Assembly: GCA_004172865.1 (NCBI GenBank)
Contig: SEBV01000008.1
Location: 85,933 to 149,932, forward strand
Source: Gammaproteobacteria bacterium
Lineage (GTDB): Bacteria > Pseudomonadota > Gammaproteobacteria > Pseudomonadales > Cellvibrionaceae
Length of the DNA stretch: 64,000 bases
Reading direction: 5' to 3'
The notes beneath the pieces are model-generated. The model was not told where the DNA came from and did no database searches. It saw nothing but the letters and a program-made list of their open reading frames with translations. Below are positions 9,353 to 42,608 of the stretch, in pieces. The translations under genes and the position numbers were made by a program. Within the stretch, counting starts at the first letter, position 1. Each line of letters starts with the position of its first letter.

Positions 9353-9421
9353 ACAGTCAAACTTTTTCGATTAAATATTTTTTATAATTGACCTTACTGC
9401 TGTAGAGAGAAGGAATATTTT

Positions 9422-10555
9422 ATGCAACCGCAAAAAAATATAACGCCTGTTCGTGTTGAGTTTGATTTGTCTTTAACTCGCACGTTAATTCCGCTAAAAG
9501 ATATGAGCGAAGCTCATCTGCTGGAATTATTAAGCGACGCTAATTCTGAAGTGATCTGCGCCGGGCAAACTCTATTTTCGCGCGGTAGCTACGATGCTCA
9601 ACACGTTTATTTGTTACATGGCAATGTAAGCCTTGTCGATGAAAATAATGTGACAACGATTATTAAAGGTCGATCTACTTTACTGCCAATCGGTCACCAT
9701 CAGCCGCGTTTGGTCACAGCGGTAGCCGAATCTGATTGCAGTGTTTTACGTCTTGATAGCGAGCGTTTGGATAAGCTTTTAGCCTGGAGTCAGGTTGCGG
9801 ATTACTTGCAGTTAAATATTTCTCGTCAGCGCGATTTTGATGAAGATATTGATTGGATGATGACGGTCTTAAAATCCAATTTATTTTTTAAAGTTCCTCC
9901 CATCAACGTTGAAGAAATATTCTCTCGATTAATCCCTCAAGTTGTCTACGCGGGCGATGTGGTTATTCGTCAGGGCGAAATAGGGGATCAATGTTATTTT
10001 CTAAAAGAAGGTGAGGCCGAAGTTTGGCGGCACAATGATTCAAATCGTCAATTACTTGCGACTGTAGGCATTGGCCGCTGCTTTGGTGAGGATGCGCTAG
10101 TAAATGAAACCGCTCGAAATGCTTCTGTCATCATGCTTACAGACGGCGTGTTAATGCGTTTGGACAAACAAGATTTTTTCCGATTGCTTAAAGAGCCAGT
10201 AGTGGCTTCGATATCATTAGAATCTTTTGCAGGAAAAATTGCAGACGGCGCAGTTGCGGTGGATGTTCGTAGTGAAGAAGAATATGCCGAATTACATTTG
10301 CATTCAGCGGTTAACGTACCGTTGAATTTATTGGGCATTAAATCGCGCATGTTAGATAAAAGCCGGGCCTATATTTTTTACTGTAATACCGGTCGTCGCA
10401 GTCGCGCCGCTGCGCATCTATTAACGCAGCAAGGTTTCAAAGCTTTTGCGCTTGATGATTGCAGTAGTCTTTTCACGCAATCTCGTTGGAGCGATTTGCT
10501 GGATAATCGTTTTAATTATGTGTTGCGCGATGGAGTTGCTCACCAAGGATTGTAA
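9422..10555 (+). CDS. Protein with two cyclic-nucleotide-binding domains and a C-terminal rhodanese domain
   Basis: The second cNMP domain has the typical FGEDALV...RNASV phosphate-binding cassette. The C-terminus has a rhodanese active-site loop (YCNTGRRS). Confidence 0.75.
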   Translation: MQPQKNITPVRVEFDLSLTRTLIPLKDMSEAHLLELLSDANSEVICAGQTLFSRGSYDAQHVYLLHGNVSLVDENNVTTIIKGRSTLLPIGHHQPRLVTAVAESDCSVLRLDSERLDKLLAWSQVADYLQLNISRQRDFDEDIDWMMTVLKSNLFFKVPPINVEEIFSRLIPQVVYAGDVVIRQGEIGDQCYFLKEGEAEVWRHNDSNRQLLATVGIGRCFGEDALVNETARNASVIMLTDGVLMRLDKQDFFRLLKEPVVASISLESFAGKIADGAVAVDVRSEEEYAELHLHSAVNVPLNLLGIKSRMLDKSRAYIFYCNTGRRSRAAAHLLTQQGFKAFALDDCSSLFTQSRWSDLLDNRFNYVLRDGVAHQGL

Positions 10556-12528: not shown

Positions 12529-13971
12529 ATGTGGCGTAACAATAAGGTTTTAGTCATTGATGACAACGAATCGCGCCGGCACGATTTAAAAGTGTTATTA
12601 GAGTTTTTAAGCGAAACCACCTTCACCTCAGCCTCAAAAAGCTGGCAAGATTTGGTTCAGAGTGAAAATAAAGGTGAAGATTATATTGCGGTTTTTATTG
12701 GCGATTTTTCACAATCCAAACAATCTTTCGAACAATTATTAAAAAGTATTCGCGATTGGAATGATGAGCTTGCTGTTATTTTAACGGGTGATAATGCGCC
12801 TAGTGAAGATGGCTTGGAAGAAGTATTACGACACATGATTATCGCAACACTGCCAATTCCTCCTAGCTACAATAAACTTATCGATACATTGCACCGTGCC
12901 CAACTTTATCGTGAAGCGCAATCAAGCAGTAAGCGGCAGCCGCAACGTCGTCCTGTGCATTTATTTCGTAGTTTGGTCGGCACTAGTCGCGAAATTCAAA
13001 ACGTTCGCGAAATGATGGCGCAAGTGGCAGAAAAAGATGTGTCGGTTTTAATTACCGGCGAATCTGGTACGGGTAAAGAAGTTGTTGCGCGAAATCTTCA
13101 CTACAACTCACCACGCCGGGACAAACCTTTTGTTCCCGTTAATTGCGGTGCAATTCCTGCGGAGTTATTGGAGAGCGAATTATTTGGCCACGAGAAGGGC
13201 GCGTTTACTGGCGCTATTAATTCACGTGCGGGTCGTTTTGAACTAGCCGAAGGCGGCACTTTATTTTTAGATGAAATTGGCGATATGCCGCTCAATATGC
13301 AAGTAAAGATTTTACGCGTATTGCAAGAGCGCTGTTATGAACGTGTTGGTAGCAATAAAACGCAAAGTGTTGATGTTCGTATTATTGCTGCGACTCATCG
13401 TAATCTAGATTCAATGATTAGTAGCAATACATTCCGTGAAGATTTATTTTATCGCTTAAATGTTTTTCCTATCGAGCTGCCCTCATTAAAAGATCGCTCT
13501 GAAGATATTCCACTGCTTATTAACGAGTTAGTAACGCGGATGGAGAATGAGCAACGCGGTTCAATTCGTTTTAATTCCGCGGCAATTATGTCTCTGTGTC
13601 AGCATGAATGGAGCGGTAACGTGCGCGAGCTTGCTAACCTTGTAGAGCGCATGGCGATCATTCATCCCTACGGTGTCATTGGCGTTCAGGATTTACCCGC
13701 TAAATATCGACATGTGGATGTGAGTGACGAAGATTTTGCACCAACGACTCCTGCAGCTAACGCTAATACTGGCTACGTAAATATGAATGACAATCCCTTG
13801 CTTCCAGATCAGGGGATCGATTTGCGTGAATACATTACCAATCTTGAAATGAGTTTGATTCAGCAAGCGCTTAACGATTGCGGTGGCGTTGTAGCTCGCG
13901 CTGCAGATAAGTTGTGTATTCGTCGTACGACGCTGGTGGAAAAAATGCGGAAGTATGAATTGCAGCGTTAA
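12529..13971 (+). CDS. fleQ: Sigma54-dependent flagellar master regulator FleQ
   Basis: FleQ-type N-domain ([27 protein letters not shown]). AAA+ core with [14 protein letters not shown] and LFLDEIGDM, plus a C-terminal Fis-type HTH. Confidence 0.92.
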
Positions 13972-14058: not shown

Positions 14059-15426
14059 TTAGCCGAGTTTAATTACAGGCTTTTTAGGCTTGCTTCTACG
14101 AGTCGCGCCTTGAGGTTTGCCGCCGGAAGGTTTTGCATTGCCATTATTATTTCCAGCGTTGCCGGATGTTTTTGGCTTCGGCTTTGCGCCTAGTGCAGGT
14201 CTGCGTGCGCCACTATTATTTCCGCCGCCGTTATTGCGACCAATAGTCATGCTGCGGCCCAATACAATTGGCTCTGGGCGAATGCTTGGGTCTGGCTCAA
14301 AACCGGGAAGAACTTGTTTGGGAATATCACGCTTAATTAATTTTTCAATATCACGCAAAAATTTCTCTTCATCCACACACACCAATGAAATCGCAATACC
14401 TTCGCTTTCCGCGCGGCCAGTACGACCAATTCGGTGAACATAATCCTCTGGCACGTTTGGCAATTCATAGTTTACAACATGCGGAAGTTGGTCGATATCA
14501 ATACCGCGCGCTGCGATATCAGTTGCAACGAGTGCGCGAATCGCGCCGCGTTTAAAATCTTCCAATGCTTTAGTGCGAGCGCCCTGGCTTTTATTACCGT
14601 GGATTGCCGCGGCGCTAATACCATCGTCAGCTAATTGTTCGGTTAATTTATTCGCGCCGTGTTTAGTGCGGGTAAAAATTAACACTTGTTGCCAATCGCC
14701 ATCTTTAATTAAGTGCGACAGCAATTCGCGTTTACGATTACGATCAACCGGGTGAACAGTCTGCTCGATTCTTTCGCTGGCGGTGTTACGGCGAGCCACT
14801 TCGATCAACGTTGGTTTGTTTAATAACTTATCCGCAAGATCTTTAATTTCATTTGAAAAAGTTGCAGAGAATAATAAGTTTTGACGTTGCTTTGGCAATA
14901 AAGCTAATACGCGTTTGATGTCATGAATAAATCCCATATCGAGCATGCGGTCAGCTTCATCGAGCACAAGTACTTCAACTTCTTTTAGGCTCACGGCATT
15001 TTGTTGAACCAAATCGAGCAAGCGGCCTGGCGTTGCTACCAGAATGTCTACGCCACCGCGTAGTTTCATCATTTGTGGGTTTGCACTTACACCGCCGAAT
15101 ACAACGGTTGAGCGCAACTGTAAATATTTTCCGTAGGTGCGAACGCTTTCAAATACTTGCGCGGCGAGTTCACGAGTTGGAGTAAGAATAAGTGCGCGCA
15201 CTGGGCGGCGGCCTGCAACCACTTTGGTGCTGGCGCTAAGTTTTTGTAGAAGGGGCAGGGTAAAGCCTGCGGTTTTGCCGGTGCCGGTTTGTGCGCCGGC
15301 TAAAATATCGCCACCGTTCAGTACGGCTGGAATGGCTTGGGCTTGAATTGGAGTTGGCGTGCTGTAGCCTTCTTCTGCAATAGCACGAAGAATTTCGGCG
15401 TTTAAGCCGAGAGTAGCAAATGACAT
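14059..15426 (-). CDS. rhlE: ATP-dependent DEAD-box RNA helicase, RhlE-like, with a basic G/N/K-rich tail
   Basis: Q-motif, [15 protein letters not shown] and HRIGRTGR motifs. The ATG at 15426 (MSFATLGL) is chosen over the longer track ORF, whose extra 38 aa look non-coding. Confidence 0.92.
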
Positions 15427-15623
15427 AGTGTTTTCCTGTAGCTCGGCCTCCCGCAGTGGGGATAGGTCTGGCGAGCAAGAGAGTCTAGTTTGGGCGTTGC
15501 CCGCAGCTAGAAGAGAGAGGCGATGCTGACCTAGTAGCATCGGATGCGCATGGTACAGAAATTGGCTGCCCTTAGCTAGCAGCCATTTCTATTAGGCTCT
15601 ATTCATGATGACGGTTGGGCTTT

Positions 15624-16202
15624 TTAACTCGCGCCATAATACGCATGCAATATGGTCACAATCGCTAAAACAATAAACAAAACAAAAGCTGCTTTTCTCG
15701 CCAAATTCAGGGGTATGCGCTCCATCAACCATTTGCCAGCGAAGATAACCGGCACATTTGCCAGCAACATGCCGAATGTAGTGCCCGCAACAACCCAGAG
15801 GGTTTCAGTTTGGTATTTGGCGGCAAGGATCACAGTCGCTATTTGCGTTTTATCGCCAATTTCAGCCAGAAAAAAAAGCACACATGTCGCAACCAGCGGT
15901 CCGTATTGGCCGAATTTTCCGAGGTCGTCGTCTTCTTTATCGGGTACCAATAACCAGATGGCTACAGCGATAAAGCTCGCACTAATAATCCAGGGAATGT
16001 ACTCAGTGGGAATTTTATCCCCTAACCAAGCACCGGCCCAAGCCGATAACGCATGATTGATTAGCGTGGATAAAAGCACTCCCAAACTAATAACGTAGGG
16101 GCGACCGTATTTGGTGACGAGGAACAGAGCAAGGAGTTGGGTTTTATCACCGATTTCGGCAATGGCAACAGCGAGGGTAGAGCTTAGGAAGGCTTCCATC
16201 AT
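15624..16202 (-). CDS. UPF0016 (GDT1/TMEM165/MneA-like) membrane protein, a putative Mn2+/Ca2+ exporter
   Basis: Two internal repeats each carry the E-x-G-D-K-T motif (EIGDKTQ twice). About six TM segments. Confidence 0.85.
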   Translation of the reverse strand: MMEAFLSSTLAVAIAEIGDKTQLLALFLVTKYGRPYVISLGVLLSTLINHALSAWAGAWLGDKIPTEYIPWIISASFIAVAIWLLVPDKEDDDLGKFGQYGPLVATCVLFFLAEIGDKTQIATVILAAKYQTETLWVVAGTTFGMLLANVPVIFAGKWLMERIPLNLARKAAFVLFIVLAIVTILHAYYGAS

Positions 16203-16227
16203 AATAACCGGGCGGGATTTTAAACCA

Positions 16228-16386
16228 GAGATATAGCAACCGTCCCGCCAGTGGCGGTCGCTATATCTCAGGTCTCATCGATTCAATCACACGATTGAAC
16301 ACCATTGCCATGCTATATGAGCAAGTTTGTTGACAATGGCACTGGTAATTTTTACAAATTAACCAGCAGATTACTCCCCCGAGAGA
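16228..16386 (-). promoter_or_regulatory. yybP-ykoY (Mn2+) riboswitch-like leader of the UPF0016 gene
   Basis: On the minus strand, UCUCGGG-GGAGUAA ... three hairpins ... AUGAGA-CCUGAGA. The P1 arms UCUCGGG/CCUGAGA pair over 7 bp and flank the conserved GGGGAGUA and GAGACC elements. The 3' P1 arm overlaps a 10-bp-plus-5-bp hairpin (16228-16269), which gives mutually exclusive folds. Confidence 0.55.
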
Positions 16387-16439
16387 AGTGCGCGCATTCT
16401 ATCTAGGTCATTGCCATTACTCAACAGCAATGTTTTCAC

Positions 16440-17585
16440 TCAGTAGCCTTGTGAAACCAAATCGTCAAATTGTTGCTGCATATCGTCGGAAGATCGAGGT
16501 TGGTCGAGTTCTCGGTAAATAGTGCTCGCCAATTGGTAAAACCGTTTTTCTTTGTTTTCGATATTAATCGCCTGTTGAATATGCACGAGCGCCTGTTTCG
16601 GATCGCCCGCTGTTAGCGCTGAAGTTGCAAGCGAATATTCGTTGTACGGATTCGATTTGCGATAATTTTTTGCAGCAGCGGCGTAACGTTGAGCTTTATC
16701 GTTGTTGCCCATATCTCGATAAAGCACAGACAAATTATTCATAATAGTTAAATCGTCAGGCTTAAGTTCAAGGCCTTTTAAGTAGGCAAGTTCAGTTTCT
16801 GGCAATAAATTATAGCGACGATAAACAACGGCTAGGTTGTTCCAAAGGTAGCTTTGGCTTTGCTCTGATTGCATCGCCCTGGATATATAAAGGAAAGCTT
16901 TTTCCTTATCTCCTTCCGCTAACGCTTCGGTTGATCTGTTGCTGTAATATTGTGAATCTACTTGTTCATTTGAAAGCATACGTTGGTGATAACTTGGACG
17001 GTATTGATCAAGTTGCAAATCAACTACGACATAATCTGTTTTGCCAAAACCTCTGGATTCACTGGGAAATTTTACAAGCGCATTCACGTGCAGCATGAAG
17101 AAAACTGAGCTGTCGGAAAACATATTCCAGCTTGGCGGAATATCGACTGTATTAATGTAAGCTTCAAGATTTAAGTATCGCGCCAAGGCGACGTAAAGGA
17201 TTGAGAAGCTTAAGCAGTTAGCATGTTTGTGAGCGAATGTATCAGGTGCAGCTTCCGTAATTTTTGCGTCAAATTTAACGCCTTGGCCGCCTTCTTTTTC
17301 AGATGTAATTAATGCCTTGTGAAGTGCGACAGCTTTGGTTAATGGAGTGTTTGCATTTCGTGTTGCATCGTTTGCAAATTTCGCCATTTCAGCAGTTACT
17401 TCGAAAAGATCACCATTGGGAAGTTCGCTAGCAGCGAAGTCGCGCCCCAAAATTAATCTGCCCGACAAAAGCCGTTCAGTTCCCGTGAGTTGACTGGTTT
17501 TTGTTTTTGGGGGAACGGAAGAGCAGCTATTTAATAAAATGGCCGCGATGAGAGGAATCAAGCTACTTAATATTATTTTGTTCAT
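16440..17585 (-). CDS. Lipoprotein with a transglutaminase-like cysteine-protease-fold region and C-terminal TPR repeats
   Basis: The ATG at 17585 gives a lipobox (LLNSC). The segment HANCLSFSILYVALARYL...HVNA resembles a transglutaminase-like core. Several TPR-like repeats follow. Confidence 0.65.
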   Translation of the reverse strand: MNKIILSSLIPLIAAILLNSCSSVPPKTKTSQLTGTERLLSGRLILGRDFAASELPNGDLFEVTAEMAKFANDATRNANTPLTKAVALHKALITSEKEGGQGVKFDAKITEAAPDTFAHKHANCLSFSILYVALARYLNLEAYINTVDIPPSWNMFSDSSVFFMLHVNALVKFPSESRGFGKTDYVVVDLQLDQYRPSYHQRMLSNEQVDSQYYSNRSTEALAEGDKEKAFLYISRAMQSEQSQSYLWNNLAVVYRRYNLLPETELAYLKGLELKPDDLTIMNNLSVLYRDMGNNDKAQRYAAAAKNYRKSNPYNEYSLATSALTAGDPKQALVHIQQAINIENKEKRFYQLASTIYRELDQPRSSDDMQQQFDDLVSQGY

Positions 17586-18506
17586 GGGACACCTCTTTGA
17601 GTTGACTCTCAAAGTATAGAAGTCCCGCATAGATTATTAGCTGATAAGTATATAATATTTAGGAATATAAGGATTTTTCTAAATCTTCTTCACGCTTGAA
17701 TTGTTTGCAAATCACCTAAAAACATTTTTACGTATGTTGATTTTTAATCAGTTCAGTTAAATCAAATACTTATTTATAAAATTGTTTAACGTTAACCTTA
17801 ATAATTTTTCGAATGGTATTAATGCTGCCAGCGGTAGGAGTTAGGTTTGCTGTATCTGCAATTTGCGATAGATATGATGAGCTTTAGCGAATTGCGGGGT
17901 TTATCTTAATAACGTTGATGGCGTATCAAAAATGTTAAGTGGAAGTCTCACTAGTATTTATAACCATGATGGAAATTGTTTGGGTTCTTAACCACCTTTG
18001 TTTCGAAGTAAGTTTCCGCATCTTATTATTTCTTTCCGTTTTTCGTTGTTCTTCATTCGCCCGATTTTTAATCTACATTTTGATTAATTAAATTTCACTC
18101 TATTAATATCAATAATACATCTTGTTGATGTACTACTTGATAGTGTTGATATCTAACCAAAAATATTTCCTGGCGATCTATTTTCATGGTTAATAGGTGT
18201 AATTACCTAAAATTTATTTAGTTGTATAAAATTTATTAAATTAAATTTTTAGAAAAAAGGCGCTGCTAGATATAAAGCATATTGCTCTAAATTGATCATT
18301 TCTCAACTGTTGATATTTAATGCTTTATTTTTTGGTGAGGAAATATTAAGCGGTTTTTATAATTCACGGAAATAAACTTATATTTTATTGATGTGGATAA
18401 AATTCATATTAAAATTTTTTTAATCTTCGCTTAGTAATATTTAATCTTTATTAATCATGAGGTTATGTTTTCCAAATATTTTAGAAGAGTTGGTTTTTGT
18501 TTTTCG

Positions 18507-18522
18507 TGGCATACAAGTTGCT
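18507..18522 (+). promoter_or_regulatory. Sigma54 (-24/-12) promoter of the TonB-dependent receptor gene
   Basis: TGGCATACAAGTTGCT matches TGGCAC-N5-TTGCW with exact GG-N10-GC spacing. It lies 40 nt before the ATG, and AAGGA is the SD. Confidence 0.7.
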
Positions 18523-18561
18523 CTTGCTGAGACTCAAACAAAAATTATTTAAGGATTTAAT

Positions 18562-21510
18562 ATGAGTCTCCTCGAAATAAATAGTTCCGATAAAAAAGTT
18601 AGACAGTTTAATTTGCCGAAAAAACTACCTTTTAATTTAACTTTGTTGGCCACTCTTGTTGCTGGCTTATCAGTAATTCCCAGTTCGTTTGCACAAGCTG
18701 TTGCTGAATCTGAAACACCTCAGAAAGTTATTGAAACACAACCTCCCGCAGCTGGTGATGCTAATTTTGAAACGCCAGATGAAATTCTAATTCGTGTGGA
18801 GCGGCAGAAAACGTTGAAAGCTGTACACGACGAACCGAGTTCAATTTCTATTGTTACGGGTTCAGATTTGTCCGCTGAGATTGCGACAGATTATCAAGCT
18901 ATTACCAAGCGTTTGGCGAATATCACTTTTAACCATTCAAATACTCGCGGCGCTTCATTATCTGTGCGCGGTATTGGTAAACGCGGCTTTGCGGAAGTAC
19001 AAGACCCAAGCGTTCTAGTAAATTTAGATGGTGTTAGTTTTGGTTTAACGGCACTGGGAAATTTTGATTTTTTTGATATAGAAACTGTTGAAGGTCAGCG
19101 TGGCGCAACAGGTACTAAAGGCGGTAAGGGCGGTAGTGCTGGTGAAGTAAATTTCAACACCAAACGTCCATCTTTTACTCCAGGCACTGAGTTTTCTGTT
19201 ACCTACGGTCAACGCAATACGCAAATTTTACAAGTGGCAACTGGTGGTCCGGTTGTGGATGATTTGCTCGCGTGGCGCGGGGCTTTAATTATTAATAAGG
19301 CAGATGGCTATTATCAAAATGGTTACGGCTATGACGACAACAAATCTTTTTACAATCGTGATCGTGTTGCCAGCCGCATACAATTATTGTTAACACCATC
19401 CGACGGTTTTAGTGCGCGTCTTAGTTACGATCGTCAACCAAGAGCTTCGCAATTGGAGAACGGAATTAGTTTCCGTCACGATAACCAGCCAGCAGAATTT
19501 GCGGATGTTCCATCGTCTTTGCTCAATAATCTGACTGATCCTAACGGCACGGGTGCTAAAGCGAAATTAGTTGGTTTCTATGGGCCAGCTACAGCATTTA
19601 ATGCTGATGGTTCAAGACCTGCAGGAACCTGGACCGGCCCACGCGAATGGTTTACCGGACGCTCTAGCCCAGAAACTCCCGGACGTACTTTTACGTATCA
19701 GGATTATTTGGTGGATGATAAATCCGGCATAGTAGTATCAAACGAGTATCAAGGCCAATATTTGGGCACTGGCGGAACGTCGCTTGAATTAATTTGGAAT
19801 TTTGAGAATTTTGATATCACATCGTTAACCGCTGAGCGTGATCTTTACTTTGATGCTCACAACGATGACGCAACGTCTTTTGATATCAACAAACAAGGCG
19901 GTGGTGGTGTCGACTACGAGCAATATAGTCAGGAATTTAAAATCGTTTCAAAACCTGGTGAAGTGATTGATTACGTCGCTGGACTTTACTTTATTAAAAC
20001 GGAAGACACCGTAAGTAGTAAAACTGGTTACGGAACTGACTACGGCGCATGGAATGCGAGTACTGCGCAATACAACACTTTGTATCGAAATGCCGGGGTT
20101 AACCGAGGTGCTGGTATAGCCTTGCTCAAGGAGTCACTTGCTGATGGATATAAAGATGGCAGAATTCTTGTCGATACCAAAAGTGCGGCTATTTATGGAT
20201 CATTGGACTGGCATGAAACTGAAGCGGCTACGCTAACAGCTGGTTTGCGTGTTGGAAGTGAAGACCGCGTTACGACGGATGTTATTCGCTGGAAAAATGA
20301 TGGCGCTGAGCAAGGTCTTAACCCTGTATTTGTAAATCCACTTGCACCTGTTTATTTAAACGGAGGCTTTAATTCCGTTGCAGCAAGCACAACTGTTACA
20401 GGTGGAACAGTCATCGCAGCAGGGACATTGGGTCGAATAGAAACTACCGTTTCAAATGGCGTTAAAACCACAGCGTTTATAAACGATAATAATGCGGCAC
20501 AACTTTCAGTCGCCGATAGAATTGCCAATAAATATTACGGTGCTGCCGTTACTGCAACGCCGGGCGCAGCTTATAACTCTCTTACTGCTGCACAGAAAAA
20601 CCAAATTGCTGCTGCAAAAGCTATACGTCTTACGGGCATTGGCTTCTTAACAGATCCGGTTGATAGTAAATACGATGACACACTCACGACTGTTAACCTG
20701 AGTCAGAGTTATAAGTTCAACGATGAAATTACTGTATACGGCACGCTGCAACACAGTGAAAAATCTGGAACAGGTTTCAACATCAACGGCATTTCTACAC
20801 CGGTTGGTAAAGAAACTACGGAAGGTATCGAACTGGGTTTAAAAACTTTCCTGTTTGATAATACCTTGACCTTCAACATCGACGTGTATCGCTTGAACAT
20901 TAGTGATTATCAGCAAGCTATCCGCGTGTTAGATGAATACACCACAGCAGTAAATAACGACGGCACTTTGGTTTACACCACTGCGCAAGGAAATCTGGAT
21001 AGTGTTGTGGCAAAAGGTATTGAATTCGATGGCACCTATACAGGCATTGAACATTTTACGTTCCGTTTTGGTGGCGCCTATAACAAAGCTACTTACGATA
21101 AATATCCGAACGCTCCGATACCAAATGAATTGGCGTATTTAACACGTGCGCCTTACAACGAGGCATATATTGATCGTTCGGGCGAAGAGCTTCCAGGTGC
21201 TCCAAAAATTACTTTTAACGTGGGCGCTACTTATCGCCAACCGTTTAATTTTGGTGAGCTGCATTCGAGTATCAATGTGGGTTATGTAGGCAAACAAAAT
21301 AATGGCGACGACTTTTCAACTTACACCGAGCAAGAAGGCTATTATCTTGTTGATGCATCTCTTGGTCTAGCATCACTCAATAGTAAATTTGACCTGACGT
21401 TGGTTGGTAAAAACCTGTTTGATGCTGCACCGCATGAAGATGGTTGGAACAGCTACGCACCTTATATTTATCGTCGGTGGATTGGGATTGAGTTCAGCAG
21501 TAAGTTTTAA
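18562..21510 (+). CDS. TonB-dependent outer-membrane receptor (982 aa)
   Basis: Signal peptide ending SSFAQA. Plug-domain motifs (SISIVTG, ...SVRGIG). A long beta-barrel with aromatic-rich strands and a terminal ...SSKF. Confidence 0.9.
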   Translation: MSLLEINSSDKKVRQFNLPKKLPFNLTLLATLVAGLSVIPSSFAQAVAESETPQKVIETQPPAAGDANFETPDEILIRVERQKTLKAVHDEPSSISIVTGSDLSAEIATDYQAITKRLANITFNHSNTRGASLSVRGIGKRGFAEVQDPSVLVNLDGVSFGLTALGNFDFFDIETVEGQRGATGTKGGKGGSAGEVNFNTKRPSFTPGTEFSVTYGQRNTQILQVATGGPVVDDLLAWRGALIINKADGYYQNGYGYDDNKSFYNRDRVASRIQLLLTPSDGFSARLSYDRQPRASQLENGISFRHDNQPAEFADVPSSLLNNLTDPNGTGAKAKLVGFYGPATAFNADGSRPAGTWTGPREWFTGRSSPETPGRTFTYQDYLVDDKSGIVVSNEYQGQYLGTGGTSLELIWNFENFDITSLTAERDLYFDAHNDDATSFDINKQGGGGVDYEQYSQEFKIVSKPGEVIDYVAGLYFIKTEDTVSSKTGYGTDYGAWNASTAQYNTLYRNAGVNRGAGIALLKESLADGYKDGRILVDTKSAAIYGSLDWHETEAATLTAGLRVGSEDRVTTDVIRWKNDGAEQGLNPVFVNPLAPVYLNGGFNSVAASTTVTGGTVIAAGTLGRIETTVSNGVKTTAFINDNNAAQLSVADRIANKYYGAAVTATPGAAYNSLTAAQKNQIAAAKAIRLTGIGFLTDPVDSKYDDTLTTVNLSQSYKFNDEITVYGTLQHSEKSGTGFNINGISTPVGKETTEGIELGLKTFLFDNTLTFNIDVYRLNISDYQQAIRVLDEYTTAVNNDGTLVYTTAQGNLDSVVAKGIEFDGTYTGIEHFTFRFGGAYNKATYDKYPNAPIPNELAYLTRAPYNEAYIDRSGEELPGAPKITFNVGATYRQPFNFGELHSSINVGYVGKQNNGDDFSTYTEQEGYYLVDASLGLASLNSKFDLTLVGKNLFDAAPHEDGWNSYAPYIYRRWIGIEFSSKF

Positions 21511-21516
21511 TGTGTA

Positions 21517-21561
21517 AATACATCTCGCCTTGGGAGAGGTTTTAGCAAGGCGATATGTATT
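21517..21561 (+). repeat. 16-bp inverted repeat (one mismatch) immediately after the receptor stop codon
   Basis: AATACATCTCGCCTTG, a 13-nt loop, then CAAGGCGATATGTATT. Confidence 0.7.
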
Positions 21562-21598
21562 AAAGATAGTTGAAAATTTATTGTAAAAATTACGTACG

Positions 21599-21627
21599 AA
21601 AAAAGCCGCTTACAAAGCGGCTTTTTA
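21599..21627 (+). terminator. Rho-independent terminator of the receptor gene
   Basis: A-run, then AAGCCGCT-TACAA-AGCGGCTT, then a T-run. Confidence 0.8.
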
Positions 21628-21994
21628 ACGTGAGTTATTAATGATTATTTTCAGAGTATAAATGCACGAAAAATATTCGATGTAAATTCGCTCTTCCGAA
21701 AATATTTCTTATTCAAGCCAATAGTGAATTGATGTATCTTTTCTGCCACGCGTTTTTTTTCATTCACATCTAAGCCAAATAGATTGCAATTTTCCGTGAA
21801 TATCTAAAGCAGCCTGAAATTTTATCTTTATACGTTGATTAAATTTTCAGAGGTATTACGATTTTTTCGAAATAAATTTCGTTGAATATCTGAAGGGTGG
21901 GCCAAAAATTTTAATAGATTTTAGGTTAATAAGCAGAGTATTTAAGCTGCGTATGAGGGTAAAACGATAAAGCAGATTTTGAAATGAAGCAAAT

Positions 21995-22027
21995 GCTAGC
22001 CATTGGATCTAAAATTCAATGGCTAGC
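21995..22027 (-). terminator. Hairpin terminator downstream of the DUF1501 gene
   Basis: Perfect 11-bp stem GCTAGCCATTG / CAATGGCTAGC, 7 nt after the stop, with a T-rich tail on the minus strand. Confidence 0.55.
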
Positions 22028-22034
22028 AAACGTT

Positions 22035-23477
22035 TTACGCGAGGATTTCTTTCACAACTCTACCGTACACAACGGTTGGGCGCTCAGAGCGGCCTTTGTT
22101 GAGGAAGGTAGTTTTTAAGTGATCGAGCCCCAATAAATTCAACACAGTTGCCTGTAAATCGTAAGTATCAACAGCCTTGTCTTTATCGGCAGTTTGCAGG
22201 CCTATAGCATCAGTCTCACCGTAAGTGAAACCAGCTTTCAAGCCGCCACCCGCCAACCATTGAGTGTAACCCCAAGGGTTGTGGTCGCGACCATTGCCGC
22301 TTTGGCCGTATGAAGTGCGCGCAAATTCAGAGGTCCAGACTACAAGAGTGGTTTCCAATAATCCGCGTGATTTCAAATCTTCCAGCAAACCAGCGATTGG
22401 TTTATCAACCATTTTTGACATAACGCCGTGGTTCTTCTCAAGGTCGCTATGCGCATCCCAACTAGTGACTTCCGTTTCACCTTGAGGTGCGCCGGTGACC
22501 ACTTGAATAAAGCGCACTCCGCGTTCAACCAAACGGCGAGCGCGAAGTAGAGTCGTGCCATAGCTCTCACTTACCTTGTCATTCAAACCGTAAAGTTCTT
22601 TAGTTGCGTCAGTTTCTTTGGTCAAATCAACGGCTTCAGGTGCTGCAGTTTGCATACGATCTGCAAGATCATAAGAGCGTAAACGCGCTTGTAATTCAGT
22701 ATCGGTAGGGCGTTCAGCCGAGCCAATATTGTTTAGCTTTTTCAGCAAATCTAACGAGCTACGTTGTTGAACTTCTGCACGCAACTCGGGGCGTTCCAAA
22801 TACAAAATGGGCGATGGGCCTGGACGGAAAGCAGTACCTTGATAAATCGCAGGCAGGAAGCCGGAGTTCCAGTTTACTGAACCTGCAGCTGGCTCTCTGT
22901 CGCCGTTATAAAGAACTACATAGGATGGTAAATCTGGGTTCGCACTACCCAGTGCGTAGGAAATCCACGCACCTAATGATGGACGACCTGGGCTCAAATC
23001 ACCGGTGTTTAATTTCAAAATTGAAATGTCGTGAGTTGCGCCCACCGTTACGCTGGATTTGATAAACGTAAGTTTGTCAGCTTGCTGTGCAAGGTTAGGT
23101 AGCAAGTCAGAAAACCACGCACCGCTTTCACCGTATTGTTTCCAGGTACGCTTGGAAGCGAACAAGTTGCCAACACCACCTTGAGTACTGGTTTTAATAC
23201 CTTTCAAAAATGATGGGGCTGGCACTGTACCTGCCAATTTAACCAATTCAGGTTTGTAGTCATACAGATCCAATGTACTTGGAGCGCCGTTTTGGTGAAG
23301 CCAAATCACCGATTTAATTTTGGCAGGAAAGTGCGGCTGCTTTGGCGCTAATGGATCAATCAGCTCCGCTGCGGTTGCAGCTGAAATAGTACCCAGGCCA
23401 GGAATTACGCCTGCCAAAGATGCTGCACCTAGACCAAGACCGGTATTTTTAATAAAATCGCGACGTGAACTGCTCAT
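22035..23477 (-). CDS. Tat-exported DUF1501 protein (sulfatase / alkaline-phosphatase-like fold)
   Basis: Twin-arginine signal (SSRRDFIK). Characteristic DUF1501 blocks (WLHQNGAPSTLDLYDYKP, SWDAHSD, GRDHNPWGYTQWLAGGGLKAG). Confidence 0.85.
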   Translation of the reverse strand: MSSSRRDFIKNTGLGLGAASLAGVIPGLGTISAATAAELIDPLAPKQPHFPAKIKSVIWLHQNGAPSTLDLYDYKPELVKLAGTVPAPSFLKGIKTSTQGGVGNLFASKRTWKQYGESGAWFSDLLPNLAQQADKLTFIKSSVTVGATHDISILKLNTGDLSPGRPSLGAWISYALGSANPDLPSYVVLYNGDREPAAGSVNWNSGFLPAIYQGTAFRPGPSPILYLERPELRAEVQQRSSLDLLKKLNNIGSAERPTDTELQARLRSYDLADRMQTAAPEAVDLTKETDATKELYGLNDKVSESYGTTLLRARRLVERGVRFIQVVTGAPQGETEVTSWDAHSDLEKNHGVMSKMVDKPIAGLLEDLKSRGLLETTLVVWTSEFARTSYGQSGNGRDHNPWGYTQWLAGGGLKAGFTYGETDAIGLQTADKDKAVDTYDLQATVLNLLGLDHLKTTFLNKGRSERPTVVYGRVVKEILA

Positions 23478-23516
23478 TATGAAATCCTCTTAGTTTTAAT
23501 TTGTTAAATCAAATGT

Positions 23517-25862
23517 TTAAAATCTGTATGCAAAATCATTCGAGTTTGCCACGGCGTGTACAAGGTCAACCAAGGCTGCTGCCTTAAGTGGATTCAGCTT
23601 TTTGGTATCTTCTTCTGTAAGGCCGGTTGGCACTGCGAGAGAATAATTTTTATCCCATCCTCTCTGAGCAATAAGCTTGTCCTGATTTTTTAAGAAATCT
23701 TTCAATGCGGATTTCTCGGCACTGCTAGGTTTACGAGCAAACAGGATTTCATAGAGTTTATTAATTTGTGCTTCAGGGTTATCACCGGCTTCTTTAATTA
23801 CACGACCTGCAAGCGCTTGCGACCAACCAAATACAACATCACTGTTGAACAAGGTGAGTGCTTGTAACGGCGTGGTGGTCACGTCACGTTTGTGATGTGG
23901 GTTCGAAGGGTTCGCCGGGTCAAATGAAACGGTTAATGGATAAGGCACACTGCGACGCACGAAGGTGTAAATACTGCGACGATTATCATCCTCTTTACCT
24001 TTTGATGCTTCCCATAATTGACCAGCATTAAAATTGTTAGGCACTTTAGGGAATACCGAAGGACCGCCTACTTGATCAACTAATTCGCCAGATGCGTACA
24101 ACAATGAATCACGAATTTCTTCCGCTTCAAGACGTTTACGTGGATAAACGGCGAGAAGTTTATTGTCAGGATCAATCTTAACGAGGTCTGCACGTTCATC
24201 TGATGATTGGCGATAAACATTCGATAACAAAATTTCGCGCACTAAAGTTTTAGTGCTCCAACCTTTATCAACGAAATTAGTAGCGAGATAATCCAACAAT
24301 TCTGGATTTGTTGGCTTCTCTCCGGCGCGACCGAAATCACCCACAGTTGCAGAAATACCATTGGAGAAATATTGCGCCCATACACGGTTAACATAAACCC
24401 GAGAGGTGAGCGGGTTAGCCGGGTCTACAATCCAATTTGCCAAGGCGGTACGGCGACCACTTGAATTTGCAGTCGGCGTAATTGCGGGTGAAGCAACGCC
24501 TGCTGCAATAGTCCACAATGCTGGAATACCAGGTTCTACAGCTTCGAGCGGACGCTCATGTACACCACCGAAACGCACAAATGTTTGCGGAGATTGAACA
24601 CCTGTTTCAGCCAACGTTGTAAAAGTTTTTGAACCGCGACCTGGTTTTTGCTTATCGAATTTTTTCAAATCTTCGGTAAGTTTTTGATAATCTTTCCATT
24701 TTTCAATATTTGCTGCGTCGAATACCGGCGTCCCTTTATCTTCAGCGCTTACTTTTAAATAGCCCGAAATATCCGCATCAGTAGCTACTGCTTTCAAACG
24801 CCAATTCACCCATTTGTCGAGCGGATTCCAATCTTTTTCCGCTTTAAAAATAGAGTCGCGGCTATCGGTTAGGTAGCGTTCGTTATGATATTGACGGCCT
24901 TTCTCGCGAACTGTATCCAGAATGGCTTTTTGCTTATCGCGAATTTCTTTTGTTGCTGCTTGATAAGCTGCTTGTTGAGTAGTGAAGGTTTTATCCCAAT
25001 CCAACTCAGTGCCTTTTGCTAAAGGTGTTTTTTCATTTACAACAGTGTTAGCAAAATAAGCTTGTAGCTGGAAATATTCCTTCTGACTAACTTTATCGAT
25101 TTTGTGATTGTGGCATCTTGCACAGCCGATACTTTGTGCAAGAAATGCTTCGCCTACCAAATCGGTGTAGTCAGTTTCAATTTGATATTTGCGTTGTACG
25201 AGATCGCGTGAGTTGCTGTTGTCAGGATAGCCTGCAAGGAAACCGGTTGCGATGCGCGCGGTTTGATTGTCTGGCCAGAGTTCATCACCTGCCAATTGTT
25301 CGCGAGCAAATTGGTTGTAAGGTTTATCTTCGTTAAAAGATGCAATTACATAGTCGCGGTAGCGCCAGTTATTAGGACGAGTTTGGTCGCCCTGGAAACC
25401 TGCGCTGTCAGCGTAGCGGGCGAGGTCTAACCAACGACGTGCATGACGTTCACCGAAATGATTTGATGCTAATAAACGATCCACCAGCTTTTCATAAGCA
25501 TCTGGTGATTTGTCTTTTTCAAAGGCTTCAATTTCTGTAGGGGATGGCAGTAAACCCCAAGTATCCAATGTTGCGCGGCGAATATAAGTGCCGCGATCTG
25601 TTTCGCGGGAGGGCTTAATGTTTTGCTTTTCCAGCTCAGCCAAAATAAAGGCATCGATTGGTGTGCGCACCCATTTCTGTTGTTTCACTACAGGAGCAGT
25701 TACGTGCTGTAACGGTTTAACAGCCCAATCCTTTGCTGCTGCATTGGCAGCAGCCGTTTGTTTTGTGGTATTAGCAGCCGACGACTTATCATCATCCGCG
25801 GCCCAAGTAGTACTGCTCGAAAAAACTAAAGCCATTGCTAAATATAAATATTTATTTTTCAT
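23517..25862 (-). CDS. Secreted DUF1549 (PSCyt2) / DUF1553 (PSD1) protein
   Basis: Sec signal peptide. PIDAFILAELEK...RRATLDTWGLLPSPTEI...FGERHARRWLDLARYADS marks DUF1549. The CARCHNHKIDKVSQKEYFQLQAYF block and a C-terminal PSD1-like region are present. AGGAG lies 8 nt before the ATG. Confidence 0.85.
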   Translation of the reverse strand: MKNKYLYLAMALVFSSSTTWAADDDKSSAANTTKQTAAANAAAKDWAVKPLQHVTAPVVKQQKWVRTPIDAFILAELEKQNIKPSRETDRGTYIRRATLDTWGLLPSPTEIEAFEKDKSPDAYEKLVDRLLASNHFGERHARRWLDLARYADSAGFQGDQTRPNNWRYRDYVIASFNEDKPYNQFAREQLAGDELWPDNQTARIATGFLAGYPDNSNSRDLVQRKYQIETDYTDLVGEAFLAQSIGCARCHNHKIDKVSQKEYFQLQAYFANTVVNEKTPLAKGTELDWDKTFTTQQAAYQAATKEIRDKQKAILDTVREKGRQYHNERYLTDSRDSIFKAEKDWNPLDKWVNWRLKAVATDADISGYLKVSAEDKGTPVFDAANIEKWKDYQKLTEDLKKFDKQKPGRGSKTFTTLAETGVQSPQTFVRFGGVHERPLEAVEPGIPALWTIAAGVASPAITPTANSSGRRTALANWIVDPANPLTSRVYVNRVWAQYFSNGISATVGDFGRAGEKPTNPELLDYLATNFVDKGWSTKTLVREILLSNVYRQSSDERADLVKIDPDNKLLAVYPRKRLEAEEIRDSLLYASGELVDQVGGPSVFPKVPNNFNAGQLWEASKGKEDDNRRSIYTFVRRSVPYPLTVSFDPANPSNPHHKRDVTTTPLQALTLFNSDVVFGWSQALAGRVIKEAGDNPEAQINKLYEILFARKPSSAEKSALKDFLKNQDKLIAQRGWDKNYSLAVPTGLTEEDTKKLNPLKAAALVDLVHAVANSNDFAYRF

Positions 25863-26010
25863 TAACTCACTCCTGAAACGGTGATCTTACGTGCAAACTT
25901 AATAGCAGATAAATACAGGTTTCCCTGAAACTTTTACTCGTTATAAGTACAAGAAAGGGCTTGAAATACAGTTGGTAATAGAACACTCATATGCGAACAA
26001 ATTTATAAGT

Positions 26011-26026
26011 TGCAGCTACTATGCCA
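26011..26026 (-). promoter_or_regulatory. Sigma54-type promoter of the DUF1549/1553-DUF1501 operon
   Basis: The minus strand reads TGGCATAGTAGCTGCA, with GG-N10-GC spacing exact. About 150 nt upstream of the ATG at 25862. Confidence 0.55.
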
Positions 26027-26855
26027 GTTTAAGAATTAGTCAAATTTGTGAGGGCAGTGTGAATTTACGGCTTTGATTTATATGGAGATTTTAAATTTTA
26101 TCTTTTTTTAAAATAAAAATTGGAGTTACACTTAGTTATTAAAATAGTTATTACTGAAACAATTGGAGTGATAATGTTATAAGTGCAGCAGCGAAATTTT
26201 CATCAATATTTTTTTTAATTTTGATTCCAAAAATCAAATGCAGAGAGATTGATAAAATGATTGTCGAGACAACGAAAACCAAAAAAGATATTTTTGATTT
26301 TTTCATTTTTAACACTTTTCGAAGCGAATGCTTCAATCGCTTTGCTTGATCAGCTGCTGGTTACCTGTTTGTTATCAAGCGCATTTTATTATGATCAAGA
26401 TTTTTGGTGCTTTTGCAGGTGTTTTAAAATAGGCAGAGGTTTCTGACCAATGTGTTTTAAAAGTAACACTTGTGCTTCAGGTTTCATGATTGATCCTACT
26501 TGATACCCGCTTCAAATTCGTATTGATCACAATTTTTCTCTCATAAATGCATAAAATTTTCTTTGCAGTCATAACGGCAGTCAACGCCTGATAAAAATTA
26601 AATTCAAAATAATCAATAAGTAAGAACCAAGCTAATTGCGAAAAATAGTAAATATCGGCTGTTTGAGCTGCATAAATAGCTATTAATAATCTTTTTTCGA
26701 ACTGTTGCGATGACTAATTAGCTTATTTCGATGAGTCGACTACGAAATTAAAATCACTAATTCAAAAATAACCCTCCTCAATGTTTTGCTGCTGATTTAT
26801 CTACAGAGCAAAAAATCGCATCCAGTTTTTAGCAAAATAATGATCTCTAAAAAGA

Positions 26856-26871
26856 TGGCATAGCTTGTGCT
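26856..26871 (+). promoter_or_regulatory. Sigma54-type promoter upstream of the enhancer-binding-protein gene
   Basis: TGGCATAGCTTGTGCT, with GG-N10-GC spacing exact. It shares the TGGCATAG head with the element at 26011-26026. About 195 nt before the ATG. Confidence 0.5.
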
Positions 26872-27065
26872 CAATGGTCTTTGAATATCGCAGCCAAGTG
26901 TACGTAAAGCTTCAGTGCTGTATGAAATGACTATTTGAAACTACCAATATCATTTTTATCGGCAGAAGACGTTTGGTAGGACAAGACTTGCGACAAAGCA
27001 CCCTGTATGAAGGTAATGAGTTTTAAACGCATCATGACTACAAATAATAATTTGAGGGTAGGTAG

Positions 27066-28235
27066 ATGAGCGATCCCATAATGCAGCCTGTTGTCTCGCT
27101 GGAGGTGGAATCCGCTCGCCCGTTAGCTGCAAAACCGAAAGAGAAAAACCTGGTTTTTTTCGATCCTCATTCTAAAAATTTACTTGAGTTGATAGAGCGT
27201 GTTGCGCCTAGTGACGCGCCTGTACTGATTACTGGAGATACGGGAACAGGGAAAGAGTTGATCGCCCGCCATATACATCATTTGAGCGGTCGGCAGGGCC
27301 CATTTCTAGTAGTTAATTGTGGGGCTATCAACGCCCAATTGGCCGAGAGTGAATTGTTTGGGCATGAGGCGGGGGCATTTACCGGCGCGTTTAGAAGAAG
27401 GGAAGGGTGGTTTGAAGCGGCCGAGGGAGGAACATTATTTATGGATGAAATTTGCGACCTTCCAATGTCCCTGCAAGTGAAGTTATTGCGAGTGCTGCAA
27501 GAAAAAGAAGTTATGCGTATTGGCTCGAGTGAAGCCACTCAGGTTAATGTGCGTTTGATAGCAGCGACCAACGTGGACATCGAATCTGCCGTGGCGGCTG
27601 GAAACTTTCGTCGCGATTTATTTTACCGGATTAACATTGCGCAAATTAAATTGCCATCGCTATGCGATAGACCTCAAGACATCATCCCTTTGGCTGAGCA
27701 TTTTCTAAAGTTTTACAGTAAAAAAATGAAACTCAAACAGCCAAAACTTTCCCGCGAAACAATCAATTTGCTTTTAAGTTATTCCTGGCCTGGCAATATT
27801 CGTGAACTGGAAAACGTTATTCATTTTGCGCTATTGGTTGCCGGCAAAGAAGTTATCAGCCCGAAACACTTAAGAATAATTGCAGATAGAAAAACAGCCG
27901 TTTTAAATTACGGCCAAGCGATATCTCACAGGCGACAAGTCAATGTAAGCAATATCAGCCCGAGGCAAGACACTCTGGGGGCGTGTGAGGAGCATGACGA
28001 TCCAATGGCAATCATAAGCAATCAGCTTATTCGCTTGTTCCAGGAAGCGGCTAACGGCCCAAACTTTGATACCTTGGAAGATCTGATTATCCACCAGGCA
28101 TTTTCACATTCCAGATCAAACCAGGTGCATTGTTCCGCGCTACTTGGAATATCCAGAAATGTCACACGGCGGCTTCTCAAACGCCACGGGTTACTCGCAA
28201 GTCACAAAGATGACGATGATAGTCAGGACGATTGA
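27066..28235 (+). CDS. Sigma54-dependent transcriptional activator (bEBP) lacking an N-terminal sensory or receiver domain
   Basis: The AAA+ core begins about 30 aa from the N-terminus ([28 protein letters not shown]). A C-terminal Fis-type HTH ([19 protein letters not shown]) and an acidic tail follow. Confidence 0.9.
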
Positions 28236-38053: not shown

Positions 38054-38059
38054 TGTTAA

Positions 38060-41638: not shown

Positions 41639-41643
41639 AGTCG

Positions 41644-42603: not shown

Positions 42604-42608
42604 AAGTT

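Follow-up and report, generated by a model that had tools for sequence, protein, structure and literature searches.

The pairing of a PSCyt2/DUF1549-PSD1/DUF1553 protein (DUF1549/1553 below) with a DUF1501 protein has been described as a conserved module of no known function (Kamneva et al. 2012, PMC3542564; He et al. 2017, PMC5615132), and the only published ideas about the pair are 'electron transport' or 'carbohydrate metabolism'. We analysed a copy of this module in a 64,000-nucleotide stretch of DNA (the window; contig SEBV01000008.1 of assembly GCA_004172865.1, positions 85,933 to 149,932, forward strand) from a Gammaproteobacteria bacterium of the Cellvibrionaceae, where the pair lies between the gene of a TonB-dependent receptor of the outer membrane and that of a sigma-54 activator without a sensor domain. 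In our judgement the locus is probably a scavenging module for sulfur limitation under an SfnR-like activator, dedicated to the import of organosulfur compounds and their processing in the periplasm. The reason is that the genomic contexts of the activator family, the neighbours of the module and the cysteine (Cys) and methionine (Met) composition of its proteins all point to sulfur, and on this evidence of context and composition we depart from an earlier reading made from the letters of the stretch (the sequence-only reading), which had treated the locus as substrate-agnostic. Both the predicted promoters and the proposed sulfur link are supported by comparative data.

Endoh et al. 2003 are said to have described SfnR with only sigma-54-interaction and DNA-binding domains. 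With PspF and HrpR/HrpS the window activator shares an AAA+ core and a C-terminal helix-turn-helix (HTH) without any N-terminal regulatory domain. PspF and HrpRS are restrained by trans-acting partners, PspA and HrpV, which are encoded nearby, but a gene for a partner of the PspA/HrpV type is not adjacent to the window activator. According to work cited in PMC8234197 and PMC10932419, the organosulfur genes of Pseudomonas are activated through sigma-54 by SfnR, which is itself under the control of CysB. The hierarchical SfnR/CysB regulon of sulfate starvation (sfn, msu and ssu genes) thus has a dedicated sigma-54 activator, and orthologues of the window activator are set in ssu/sfn-like clusters with luciferase-like monooxygenases (LLM), SsuA-like binding proteins and sigma-54-like promoters. 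However, that regulon targets cytoplasmic flavin monooxygenases, whereas here the activator would act on the genes of a receptor in the outer membrane and of two DUF proteins in the periplasm.

Receptor-mediated uptake is found in the ats-sft cluster of Pseudomonas (atsA, atsK, atsRBC, sftR, sftP), in which the TonB receptor SftP for sulfate esters stands with desulfating enzymes under sulfur-limitation control (PMC3596284). Two Cellvibrionaceae loci from our survey (L084 and L004) resemble it, in that the genes of a homologous receptor, an arylsulfotransferase and a sulfatase make up one operon, which adjoins the DUF operon and diverges from it. In contrast to our locus, the ats-sft cluster is controlled by the LysR-type SftR and by CysB rather than through sigma-54; its sulfatases are canonical ones of types I and II and its ABC importer is a dedicated one, and the window contains nothing of the kind. 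Sulfur starvation in Pseudomonas is marked by the peroxiredoxin LsfA (PMC12581299, PMC3596284), to which a periplasmic AhpC/TSA peroxiredoxin that belongs to the module in relatives forms a parallel.

The modules of Planctomycetes and Verrucomicrobia (from the Planctomycetes-Verrucomicrobia-Chlamydiae group, PVC) and of the Acidobacteria have the same families in the same order, PSCyt2-PSD1 followed by a DUF1501 protein with a Tat (twin-arginine translocation) signal. What sets the proteobacterial clade apart is that it is single-copy and sulfur-depleted and that its genes are linked to those of a TonB receptor and a sigma-54 activator, as well as to sulfur genes; PSCyt1 and carbohydrate-binding domains are lacking, and the intracellular-membrane link proposed for the PVC modules is irrelevant to it. 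For Verrucomicrobia and Planctomycetes a role of PSCyt/DUF1501 proteins in the carbon-directed degradation of sulfated or otherwise decorated glycans, for growth and not for the supply of sulfur, has been proposed, PSCyt genes of the PVC group occurring near sulfatases and with carbohydrate-binding modules (PMC5615132, PMC3542564). Such a role would suit a host related to Cellvibrio, which are polysaccharide degraders, and a receptor that is large, like glycan receptors. Yet the DUF1549/1553 protein of the window has no carbohydrate-binding module in Pfam, the annotated recurrent neighbour families include no glycoside hydrolase, and enzymes of carbon catabolism would not be expected to be selectively purged of Cys and Met. 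We therefore regard glycan degradation as a very improbable function of this locus.

Sulfur-poor proteins and sulfur-gene contexts

Four genes had been placed in region 17631-28235 by the sequence-only reading, and all four open reading frames (ORFs) were found at the coordinates it gave:

18562-21510 (+): TonB-dependent outer-membrane receptor, 982 aa (Pfam Plug and TonB_dep_Rec_b-barrel)
22035-23477 (-): DUF1501 protein, 480 aa, predicted to be Tat-exported (Pfam E 1e-125)
23517-25862 (-): PSCyt2/DUF1549 + PSD1/DUF1553 protein, 781 aa, predicted to be Sec-exported (Pfam, translation)
27066-28235 (+): sensor-less sigma-54 bacterial enhancer-binding protein (bEBP), 389 aa (Pfam Sigma54_activat and AAA_lid_14)

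Elemental sparing is a classical mark of proteins made under sulfur limitation. Apart from its initiator, the receptor has neither Cys nor Met among its 981 residues (P ~7e-9). The DUF1549/1553 protein has 2 Cys, both in a CxxCH motif, and 1 Met (0.38% Cys+Met), and the DUF1501 protein 0 Cys and 3 Met (0.63%). The other proteins of the window have a mean of 2.66% (sd 1.07), and two E. coli receptors taken as controls, FhuA and FepA, have 2.0% and 1.7%. The same depletion was found family-wide, with means of 0.45% for the receptor, 0.67% for DUF1549/1553 and 1.02% for DUF1501 against 2.53% for the other ORFs of the same loci; Sbp homologues in module loci have 0.28%, and the accessory cytochromes of these loci are not sulfur-poor. 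The depletion is confined to the proteobacterial clade. Proteobacterial DUF1501 proteins have 0.90% Cys+Met and those of the Acidobacteria and the PVC group 3.90%, the corresponding values for DUF1549/1553 being 0.56% and 2.72%; among the 150 nearest family representatives (50% identity clusters) the mean is 2.30%, and only those closest to the window protein fall below 1%. The exported proteins of the module are thus markedly depleted of Cys and Met relative both to the proteome and to their families, which is how sulfate-starvation-induced (SSI) proteins are recognised.

The gene contexts of the activator family lead in the same direction. Orthologues of the activator (120 proteins of 364-441 aa, 59-71% identical to it) include that of Cellvibrio japonicus. 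There and in locus L092 the activator gene is surrounded by genes for LLM monooxygenases (Bac_luciferase), binding proteins of the NMT1/SsuA type, permeases of ABC transporters and TonB-ExbBD; in C. japonicus the cluster contains in addition a TonB-dependent receptor with 0 Cys and 0 Met, and sigma-54-like sites precede many of its genes. The gene of an Sbp-type sulfate-binding protein stands immediately upstream of the activator gene in C. zantedeschiae and in L091, the activator of Gallionella (L063) is encoded between Sbp and CysT/W/A-like genes, and in Sapientia (L021) the activator gene is followed by an adjoining Sbp gene. In two further genomes (L086 and L087, located through activator orthologues 71% and 66% identical to the window protein) the activator adjoins the DUF module. 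Altogether, ssu-like, Sbp/CysTWA-like or DUF-module neighbours were found in all six further orthologue contexts and in three of the nine activator-bearing loci of the genome scan described below (L003, L021, L063). As a genomic association, this corresponds to the signature of SfnR.

A sigma-54 locus could instead serve a nitrogen, carbon or phosphorus compound, the possibility that the sequence-only reading had left open, with DUF1501 maybe acting as a phosphoesterase. Sigma-54 regulons often serve the scavenging of nitrogen and carbon, and the alkaline-phosphatase fold predicted for DUF1501 finds LtaS and a phosphonate monoester hydrolase among its matches. However, Pho boxes in the intergenic gaps are not above shuffled controls, and across ~45 related loci no catabolic genes for nitrogen, carbon or phosphorus compounds recur, while sulfur genes do. 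Limitation for any of these elements would also not account for a loss of Cys and Met in this clade in particular, and we consider this alternative unlikely.

In translation the receptor itself begins with a signal peptide and ends with a Phe (...SSKF), and with its PF07715 plug and PF00593 barrel it qualifies as a TonB-dependent receptor; Pfam finds no STN signalling domain in it. As such receptors classically import metals, the locus could be imagined to acquire iron or another metal with the help of periplasmic haem proteins and reductase-like partners. The receptor has weak siderophore-receptor matches in NCBIfam and PDB, genes for PepSY_TM and HbpS-like proteins occur in some related loci, and methanotrophs and iron oxidisers commonly carry the module. 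But the siderophore-receptor matches cover the plug region only, in a protein ~200-250 residues longer than siderophore receptors; Fur boxes in the gaps do not exceed shuffled controls, and the promoters are of the sigma-54 type and not Fur-repressed sigma-70 promoters. Metal acquisition would leave both the sulfur-poor composition and the sulfur-gene context unexplained, and seems to us a highly unlikely purpose.

For the conservation of the module, 185,579 reference genomes were scanned with the DUF1549/1553 family and 80 loci were kept with 10-kb flanks. The closest relatives of module and activator are Cellvibrionaceae. A sister species (L082) has a DUF1549/1553 protein 89% identical to that of the window. 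DUF1501 follows DUF1549/1553 in 74 of the 75 loci with sufficient contig, in Proteobacteria, Acidobacteria, Planctomycetes and Verrucomicrobia. Within the proteobacterial clade, where DUF1549/1553 proteins are 53-70% identical to the window protein, 16 of ~41 loci have a full-length receptor homologue (34-49% identity) no more than 10 kb away, and 9 have the same sensor-less activator, 47-51% identical over its full length, at such a distance; all four genes occur together in 5 scan loci, as well as in L082 and L087. Co-conservation of the four genes, judged by these homologies, is therefore real but modular. The DUF pair proved near-universal, but a fixed set of the four genes, whose conservation the sequence-only reading had suggested testing, did not emerge.

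The neighbours that recur in relatives both support the sulfur link and complicate it. In addition to the receptor-arylsulfotransferase-sulfatase operon of L084 and L004, genes for CysA and a LysR regulator adjoin the module in L003, and a periplasmic rhodanese accompanies it in 21 loci. The statement of the sequence-only reading that no importer or catabolic enzyme is attached is accordingly true of the window, but not of its relatives, which carry Sbp, CysTWA-like proteins, sulfatase and arylsulfotransferase. Relatives also have a gene for a small CxxCH protein directly 3' of DUF1501, followed by genes for a dihaem cytochrome c and the periplasmic AhpC/TSA peroxiredoxin (18 loci); cytochrome b561 and cytochrome c' are common as well, and Ccm and DsbD genes occur near some loci. 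We therefore weighed a periplasmic redox or oxidative-stress module, in which the DUF pair would detoxify or transform a reactive compound and low Cys and Met would protect against oxidation. These cytochromes and the peroxiredoxin beside the pair, the Ccm and DsbD genes and the invariant CxxCH of DUF1549/1553 would all fit it. On the other hand, it leaves unexplained a TonB importer free of Cys and Met, an activator found in ssu-like and Sbp/CysTWA clusters, and the adjoining sulfatase, arylsulfotransferase and rhodanese. Moreover, antioxidant proteins belong to the known sulfur-starvation response (PMC12581299), and the accessory cytochromes have kept their sulfur. A redox function in place of sulfur scavenging thus has, in our estimate, a small chance of being correct.

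Several variations of the module were seen along the way. The flanks of the sister locus L082 are the same as in the window, with the receptor gene (14683-17550) and its promoter inverted relative to the DUF operon, and in L086 AhpC and cytochrome c' genes stand where the receptor gene lies in the window; such rearrangement may have left the AT-rich gaps around the receptor gene as scars. The receptor and the activator of L082, 62% and 69% identical to those of the window, are far more diverged than the DUF proteins. A second, diverged DUF pair (49-53% and 63% identity) lies a few kb from the first in Zoogloea and Paucibacter loci, and Methylosinus sporium carries one chromosomal copy of the pair and another copy on a 287-kb plasmid (loci L015, L016, L025 and L018; L033). 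A secreted, rather Cys-rich protein of ~240 aa with no Pfam match (cluster c9; 16375-17100 in L003) is encoded in the vicinity of the module in 11 proteobacterial loci, often beside a cytochrome c' gene.

Transcription units and sigma-54 promoters

The DUF1549/1553 and DUF1501 genes are on the same strand with a spacing of 39 nt, and two hairpins separate the receptor gene from them:

21600-21627 (both strands): bidirectional intrinsic terminator hairpin with A and T runs on its flanks, 3' of the receptor gene (-20.3 / -18.3 kcal/mol, z -4.9 / -4.7)
21993-22027 (-): stem-loop directly after the DUF1501 stop codon (-19.7 kcal/mol, z -5.4; U tract weak)

The second of these is likely to be the end of the DUF operon. 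Together with the short same-strand spacing, the hairpins indicate three transcription units, and the ORFs, Pfam domains and hairpins all agree with the sequence-only reading, which had divided the four genes into receptor, DUF pair and activator. The domains it named (PSCyt2, PSD1, DUF1501, TonB receptor and Sigma54_activat) were all confirmed with Pfam, and its general picture, a sigma-54-linked module of an outer-membrane importer and two periplasmic proteins without known function, is supported by domains, export signals and promoters. It had also described very long AT-rich gaps, free of ORFs of 60 aa or more, that isolate the units from the flanking housekeeping genes. The gaps are long and AT-rich (931, 524 and 1203 bp; GC 24-35%), but the 1.2-kb divergent promoter region contains two overlapping 61-aa ORFs with TTG starts, at 26151-26336 (-) and 26261-26446 (+). 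The minus-strand ORF has a hydrophobic stretch resembling a transmembrane segment and overlaps the candidate upstream activator site described below; this part of the gap is weakly conserved in L082. Only short repeats at chance level were found in a repeat search of the gaps, and scans for sigma-70 promoters and terminators gave background levels only.

The activator has an AAA+ core at residues 33-270 with a GAFTGA loop and Walker A and B motifs (PF00158, E 3e-67), and its PDB matches to the AAA+ domain of PspF reach E 3e-65. In NCBIfam, residues 38-374 align to the whole PspF model (336/336), the alignments to the NorR (510/512) and NtrC (461/463) models also run to the model ends, and SfnR is not among the 28 families matched; the score against the PspF equivalog is 274 bits, the cut-off being 444. 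A Fis-type HTH at the C-terminus is apparent from the translation and from the NCBIfam alignments, which reach the model ends, although Pfam HTH_8 did not reach E 1e-3. The sequence-only reading had called this bEBP sensor-less, and rightly so: no receiver, GAF, PAS or V4R domain is found N-terminally, and the orthologues are all short. Since 27066 is the first possible start after an in-frame stop and lies only 32 residues before the AAA+ domain, no sensor domain can be hidden upstream.

Before each of the three units a -24/-12 element had been noted. When the whole window was scanned with the consensus TGGCAC-N5-TTGCW, allowing up to 2 mismatches, 40 sites were found against 41 expected from shuffled sequence. 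As such a scan is at chance level, we took the significance of individual sites from their position and conservation, surveying the 350 nt before each homologue for sites with intact GG/GC and at most 1 mismatch (background 0.0165 per 350-nt upstream region). The sites and associated elements of the window are as follows:

18507-18522 (+): predicted receptor -24/-12 promoter TGGCATACAAGTTGCT, 55 nt before the ATG, one mismatch
26026-26011 (-): predicted DUF1549-DUF1501 operon -24/-12 promoter TGGCATAGTAGCTGCA, 164 nt before the DUF1549 ATG
26856-26871 (+): sigma-54-like activator promoter TGGCATAGCTTGTGCT, 210 nt before the ATG, with an atypical -12 element, TGTGCT
26168-26196 (-): candidate upstream activator site TTTCGCTGCTGCACTTATAACATTATCAC, ~165 nt upstream of the DUF operon promoter
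25863-26000 (-): DUF operon leader, ~125 nt, with the ribosome-binding site CAGGAGTGAGTT and a conserved box

A correctly oriented site before three of three units has a probability of ~3e-4. Sites were found before 16 of 39 DUF1549/1553 homologues (P 8e-19) and 12 of 35 receptor homologues (P 2e-13), and all three window sites recur at matching positions in the closest relatives. The receptor gene of L082 is preceded by CGGTACAGCTATTGCA, 64 nt upstream. The DUF operon promoter, TGGCAT(A/G)GTAG(C/A)TGCA, stands 153-165 nt from the ATG in L082, L086, L087, L084 and L004, as a conserved island within an otherwise diverged spacer. The activator site is near-identical in three genomes, TGGCA(T/C)(A/G)GCTTGTGCT, with TGGCATGGCTTGTGCT in L082 and TGGCACAGCTTGTGCT in L086, whereas no such site precedes the orthologues that are more distant. 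As a prediction from conserved and enriched sites, it is therefore well supported that receptor and DUF operon are under sigma-54 control, while a sigma-54-like promoter of the activator gene is plausible for this lineage only; the earlier claim of an element before each unit stands for the first two and is weaker for the third, whose site has its atypical -12 and is confined to close relatives.

Further upstream, a block CTGCTG(C/A)-N2-TT(A/G)TAACA lies at -147 to -170 of the DUF promoter in the window, L082, L086 and L087, and k-mers of the GCAGCAG type are enriched upstream of the sigma-54 promoters of the module, which makes this block a candidate binding site for the activator. Downstream of the promoter, ~20-45 nt into the leader, a box at 25963-25978 (-) reads ATTACCAACTGTATTT in the window and ATACCAAC(T/G)GCAT in L082, L086 and L087. 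This box may be a protein-binding site and shows no conserved RNA structure. A riboswitch in the DUF operon leader was considered and rejected, as Rfam gave no match and RNAalifold 0 consensus pairs.

Elsewhere in the window, a second sigma-54 activator, FleQ-like (FleQ N-domain, AAA+, HTH_8), is encoded at 12529-13971 (+); its gene is found in synteny in the sister genome and has no relation to the module. A match to the yybP-ykoY manganese riboswitch over the full model length (26.9 bits, below the gathering threshold of 45; E 4e-4) is found at 16280-16391 (-), directly upstream of a GDT1/UPF0016 cation-transporter gene at 15624-16202 (-), a plausible pairing. At 8390-10555 (+), ~8 kb from the module, a gene for a PALP-fold (pyridoxal-phosphate) enzyme is followed by one for a protein with cyclic-nucleotide-binding and rhodanese domains. 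A Bat/MoxR-type operon encoding a MoxR AAA_3 ATPase, a DUF58 protein, two VWA proteins (one with TPR) and BatD occupies 36272-43568 (-).

The DUF pair and the case against sulfur scavenging

The DUF1549/1553 protein has a Sec signal ending TWA/ADDD in translation and scores 263 and 307 bits with the DUF1549 and DUF1553 Pfam models. Its GCARCHNHK motif (CxxCH) is invariant, with C247, C250 and H251, and in the sulfur-depleted clade the two Cys of CxxCH are the only ones kept (mean 2.0 Cys). Retention of this pair alone in a clade otherwise purged of Cys argues that the motif is essential, as a site of haem c attachment or as a metal site, and the frequency of cytochrome partners suggests that electron transfer is part of the reaction of the DUF pair. 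The AlphaFold2 model of this protein, from a shallow alignment of 20 sequences (pLDDT 51, pTM 0.35), is unusable.

The DUF1501 protein matches PF07394 over its full length, with 420 bits against a cut-off of 27, and carries the twin-arginine motif SRRDFIK, of which R5-R6 are invariant among homologues. Extra TatA/TatB-family genes just downstream of the module in L084 (17339-18068) and L087 (1-481) are consistent with dedicated Tat export of DUF1501. Searches of PDB with the DUF1501, DUF1549/1553 and receptor sequences returned marginal sulfatase matches and plug-only receptor matches. The AlphaFold2 model of DUF1501 (pLDDT 69, pTM 0.77) has sulfatases, LtaS and YejM as its top Foldseek matches. 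E-values are ~1e-5 and the probability is 1.0 for many sulfatases and for LtaS/YejM, with TM-scores of 0.3-0.4 on a model of this quality; the matches include phosphotransferases such as LtaS as well as a phosphonate monoester hydrolase. DUF1501 models as a putative member of the alkaline-phosphatase/sulfatase superfamily. With the type I sulfatases (PF00884) it would share this modelled fold; it has a local sequence similarity to them around the strand that bears the second metal-ligand pair and differs from them in lacking both C/S-x-P-x-R and the D-N/H metal pair. DUF1501 has an invariant set of its own among 47 homologues, S67, D70, D73, H149, D341, H343 and R397-D398-H399. A type I sulfatase was accordingly ruled out, given the missing C/S-x-P-x-R, the lost D-N pair and these invariant residues, and T148 was rejected as a catalytic nucleophile because the position is not conserved.

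Several of our observations weigh against sulfur scavenging, among them those on the chemistry of DUF1501. The formylglycine motif [CS]xPxR is absent from all homologues (0/47), the window protein having no Cys at all; a profile alignment (hhalign) of DUF1501 with a true sulfatase covers only 40 columns (residues 351-390), and in it the D-N metal pair of the sulfatase falls on E384-F385. DUF1501 may hydrolyse some other ester or do something else, so that its chemistry is not necessarily sulfate-ester hydrolysis. The cytochromes c and c', cytochrome b561 and peroxiredoxin nearby in relatives suggest a redox chemistry that lies outside the scavenging model, and none of the tested accessory families of relatives (cytochromes, peroxiredoxin, rhodanese), nor any remnant of them in the gaps, was found in the 64-kb window; because they are missing, we regard the window as holding a minimal version of the module. 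No sulfur-assimilation gene is present in the module or was recognised beside it within the window. As to composition, low sulfur is not unique to the module, since BatD, a 593-aa protein of the same window, has 0 Cys and 1 Met, and the scarcity of Cys and Met might instead stem from selection against residues that are open to oxidation. The likeness of the activator to SfnR is drawn from gene context, and alphaproteobacterial copies of the module are without sigma-54 sites.

How the pair might act on sulfur is a more speculative matter. We tentatively propose, as a possibility that we would rate as rather doubtful, that DUF1501 and DUF1549/1553 form an unrecognised two-component periplasmic system, in which a metallohydrolase of the alkaline-phosphatase fold and a haem c partner would free inorganic sulfur from organosulfur substrates, for instance organic matter that is sulfated or bears sulfur in another form, by a chemistry unlike that of the formylglycine sulfatases.

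A proposed route for sulfur and its meaning

If the locus serves sulfur scavenging, the following sequence of events can be envisaged. Sulfur limitation would raise the amount of the sensor-less activator since, in a protein without a sensor, control is probably exerted by amount, as for SfnR under CysB in Pseudomonas, and the activator's own sigma-54-like promoter would add positive feedback. The activator would bind upstream sites, one candidate being that ~165 nt upstream of the DUF operon promoter, and cause the receptor gene and the DUF operon to be transcribed with sigma-54. The substrate then taken in by the receptor would be an organosulfur compound whose size or scarcity puts it beyond the reach of porins, a compound of the sulfate-ester type being the most plausible, and from it the DUF1501 metallohydrolase-like enzyme and its haem-c-type partner would release inorganic sulfur in the periplasm. 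The released sulfur would be imported by the general sulfate/thiosulfate transporter of the cell, and this would account for the absence of a dedicated inner-membrane importer from the locus.

Parts of this scheme have been described before. The gene pair is known, although uncharacterised, and there are precedents for sigma-54 control of the SfnR type and for receptor-mediated uptake of organosulfur compounds. The sequence-only reading was right that the DUF families have no established function, but the DUF pair is not new, having been published as a conserved module (PMC3542564). In the literature that we searched, we found no report tying the DUF1549/1553-DUF1501 family to sulfur limitation, none coupling the DUF pair to a sulfur-free TonB-dependent receptor, and no sigma-54 regulon for the pair in Beta- or Gammaproteobacteria.

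With 38,653 cluster representatives at E <= 1e-3, DUF1549/1553-DUF1501 is among the largest families of protein pairs without a known function, and in some Planctomycetes and Verrucomicrobia its copies number from dozens to hundreds. The proteobacterial clade gives it a first testable role and a tractable entry, with a defined regulator, defined promoters and culturable hosts such as Cellvibrio (C. fibrivorans or C. fontiphilus), Duganella, Massilia, Methylotenera, Sapientia aquatica and Zoogloea. Should the two-component desulfurising system prove true, it would explain the hundreds of paralogues that stand beside sulfatases in Planctomycetes and Verrucomicrobia. The receptor, free of Cys and Met, is a clean example of elemental sparing, and this signature could serve to predict the regulon from genome sequences. 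If the sulfur reading of the locus is true, the sulfur-starvation regulon would extend to an outer-membrane and periplasmic route under a sigma-54 activator, and this would explain how bacteria of fresh water and soil, methanotrophs and iron oxidisers among them, come by their sulfur where sulfate is scarce.

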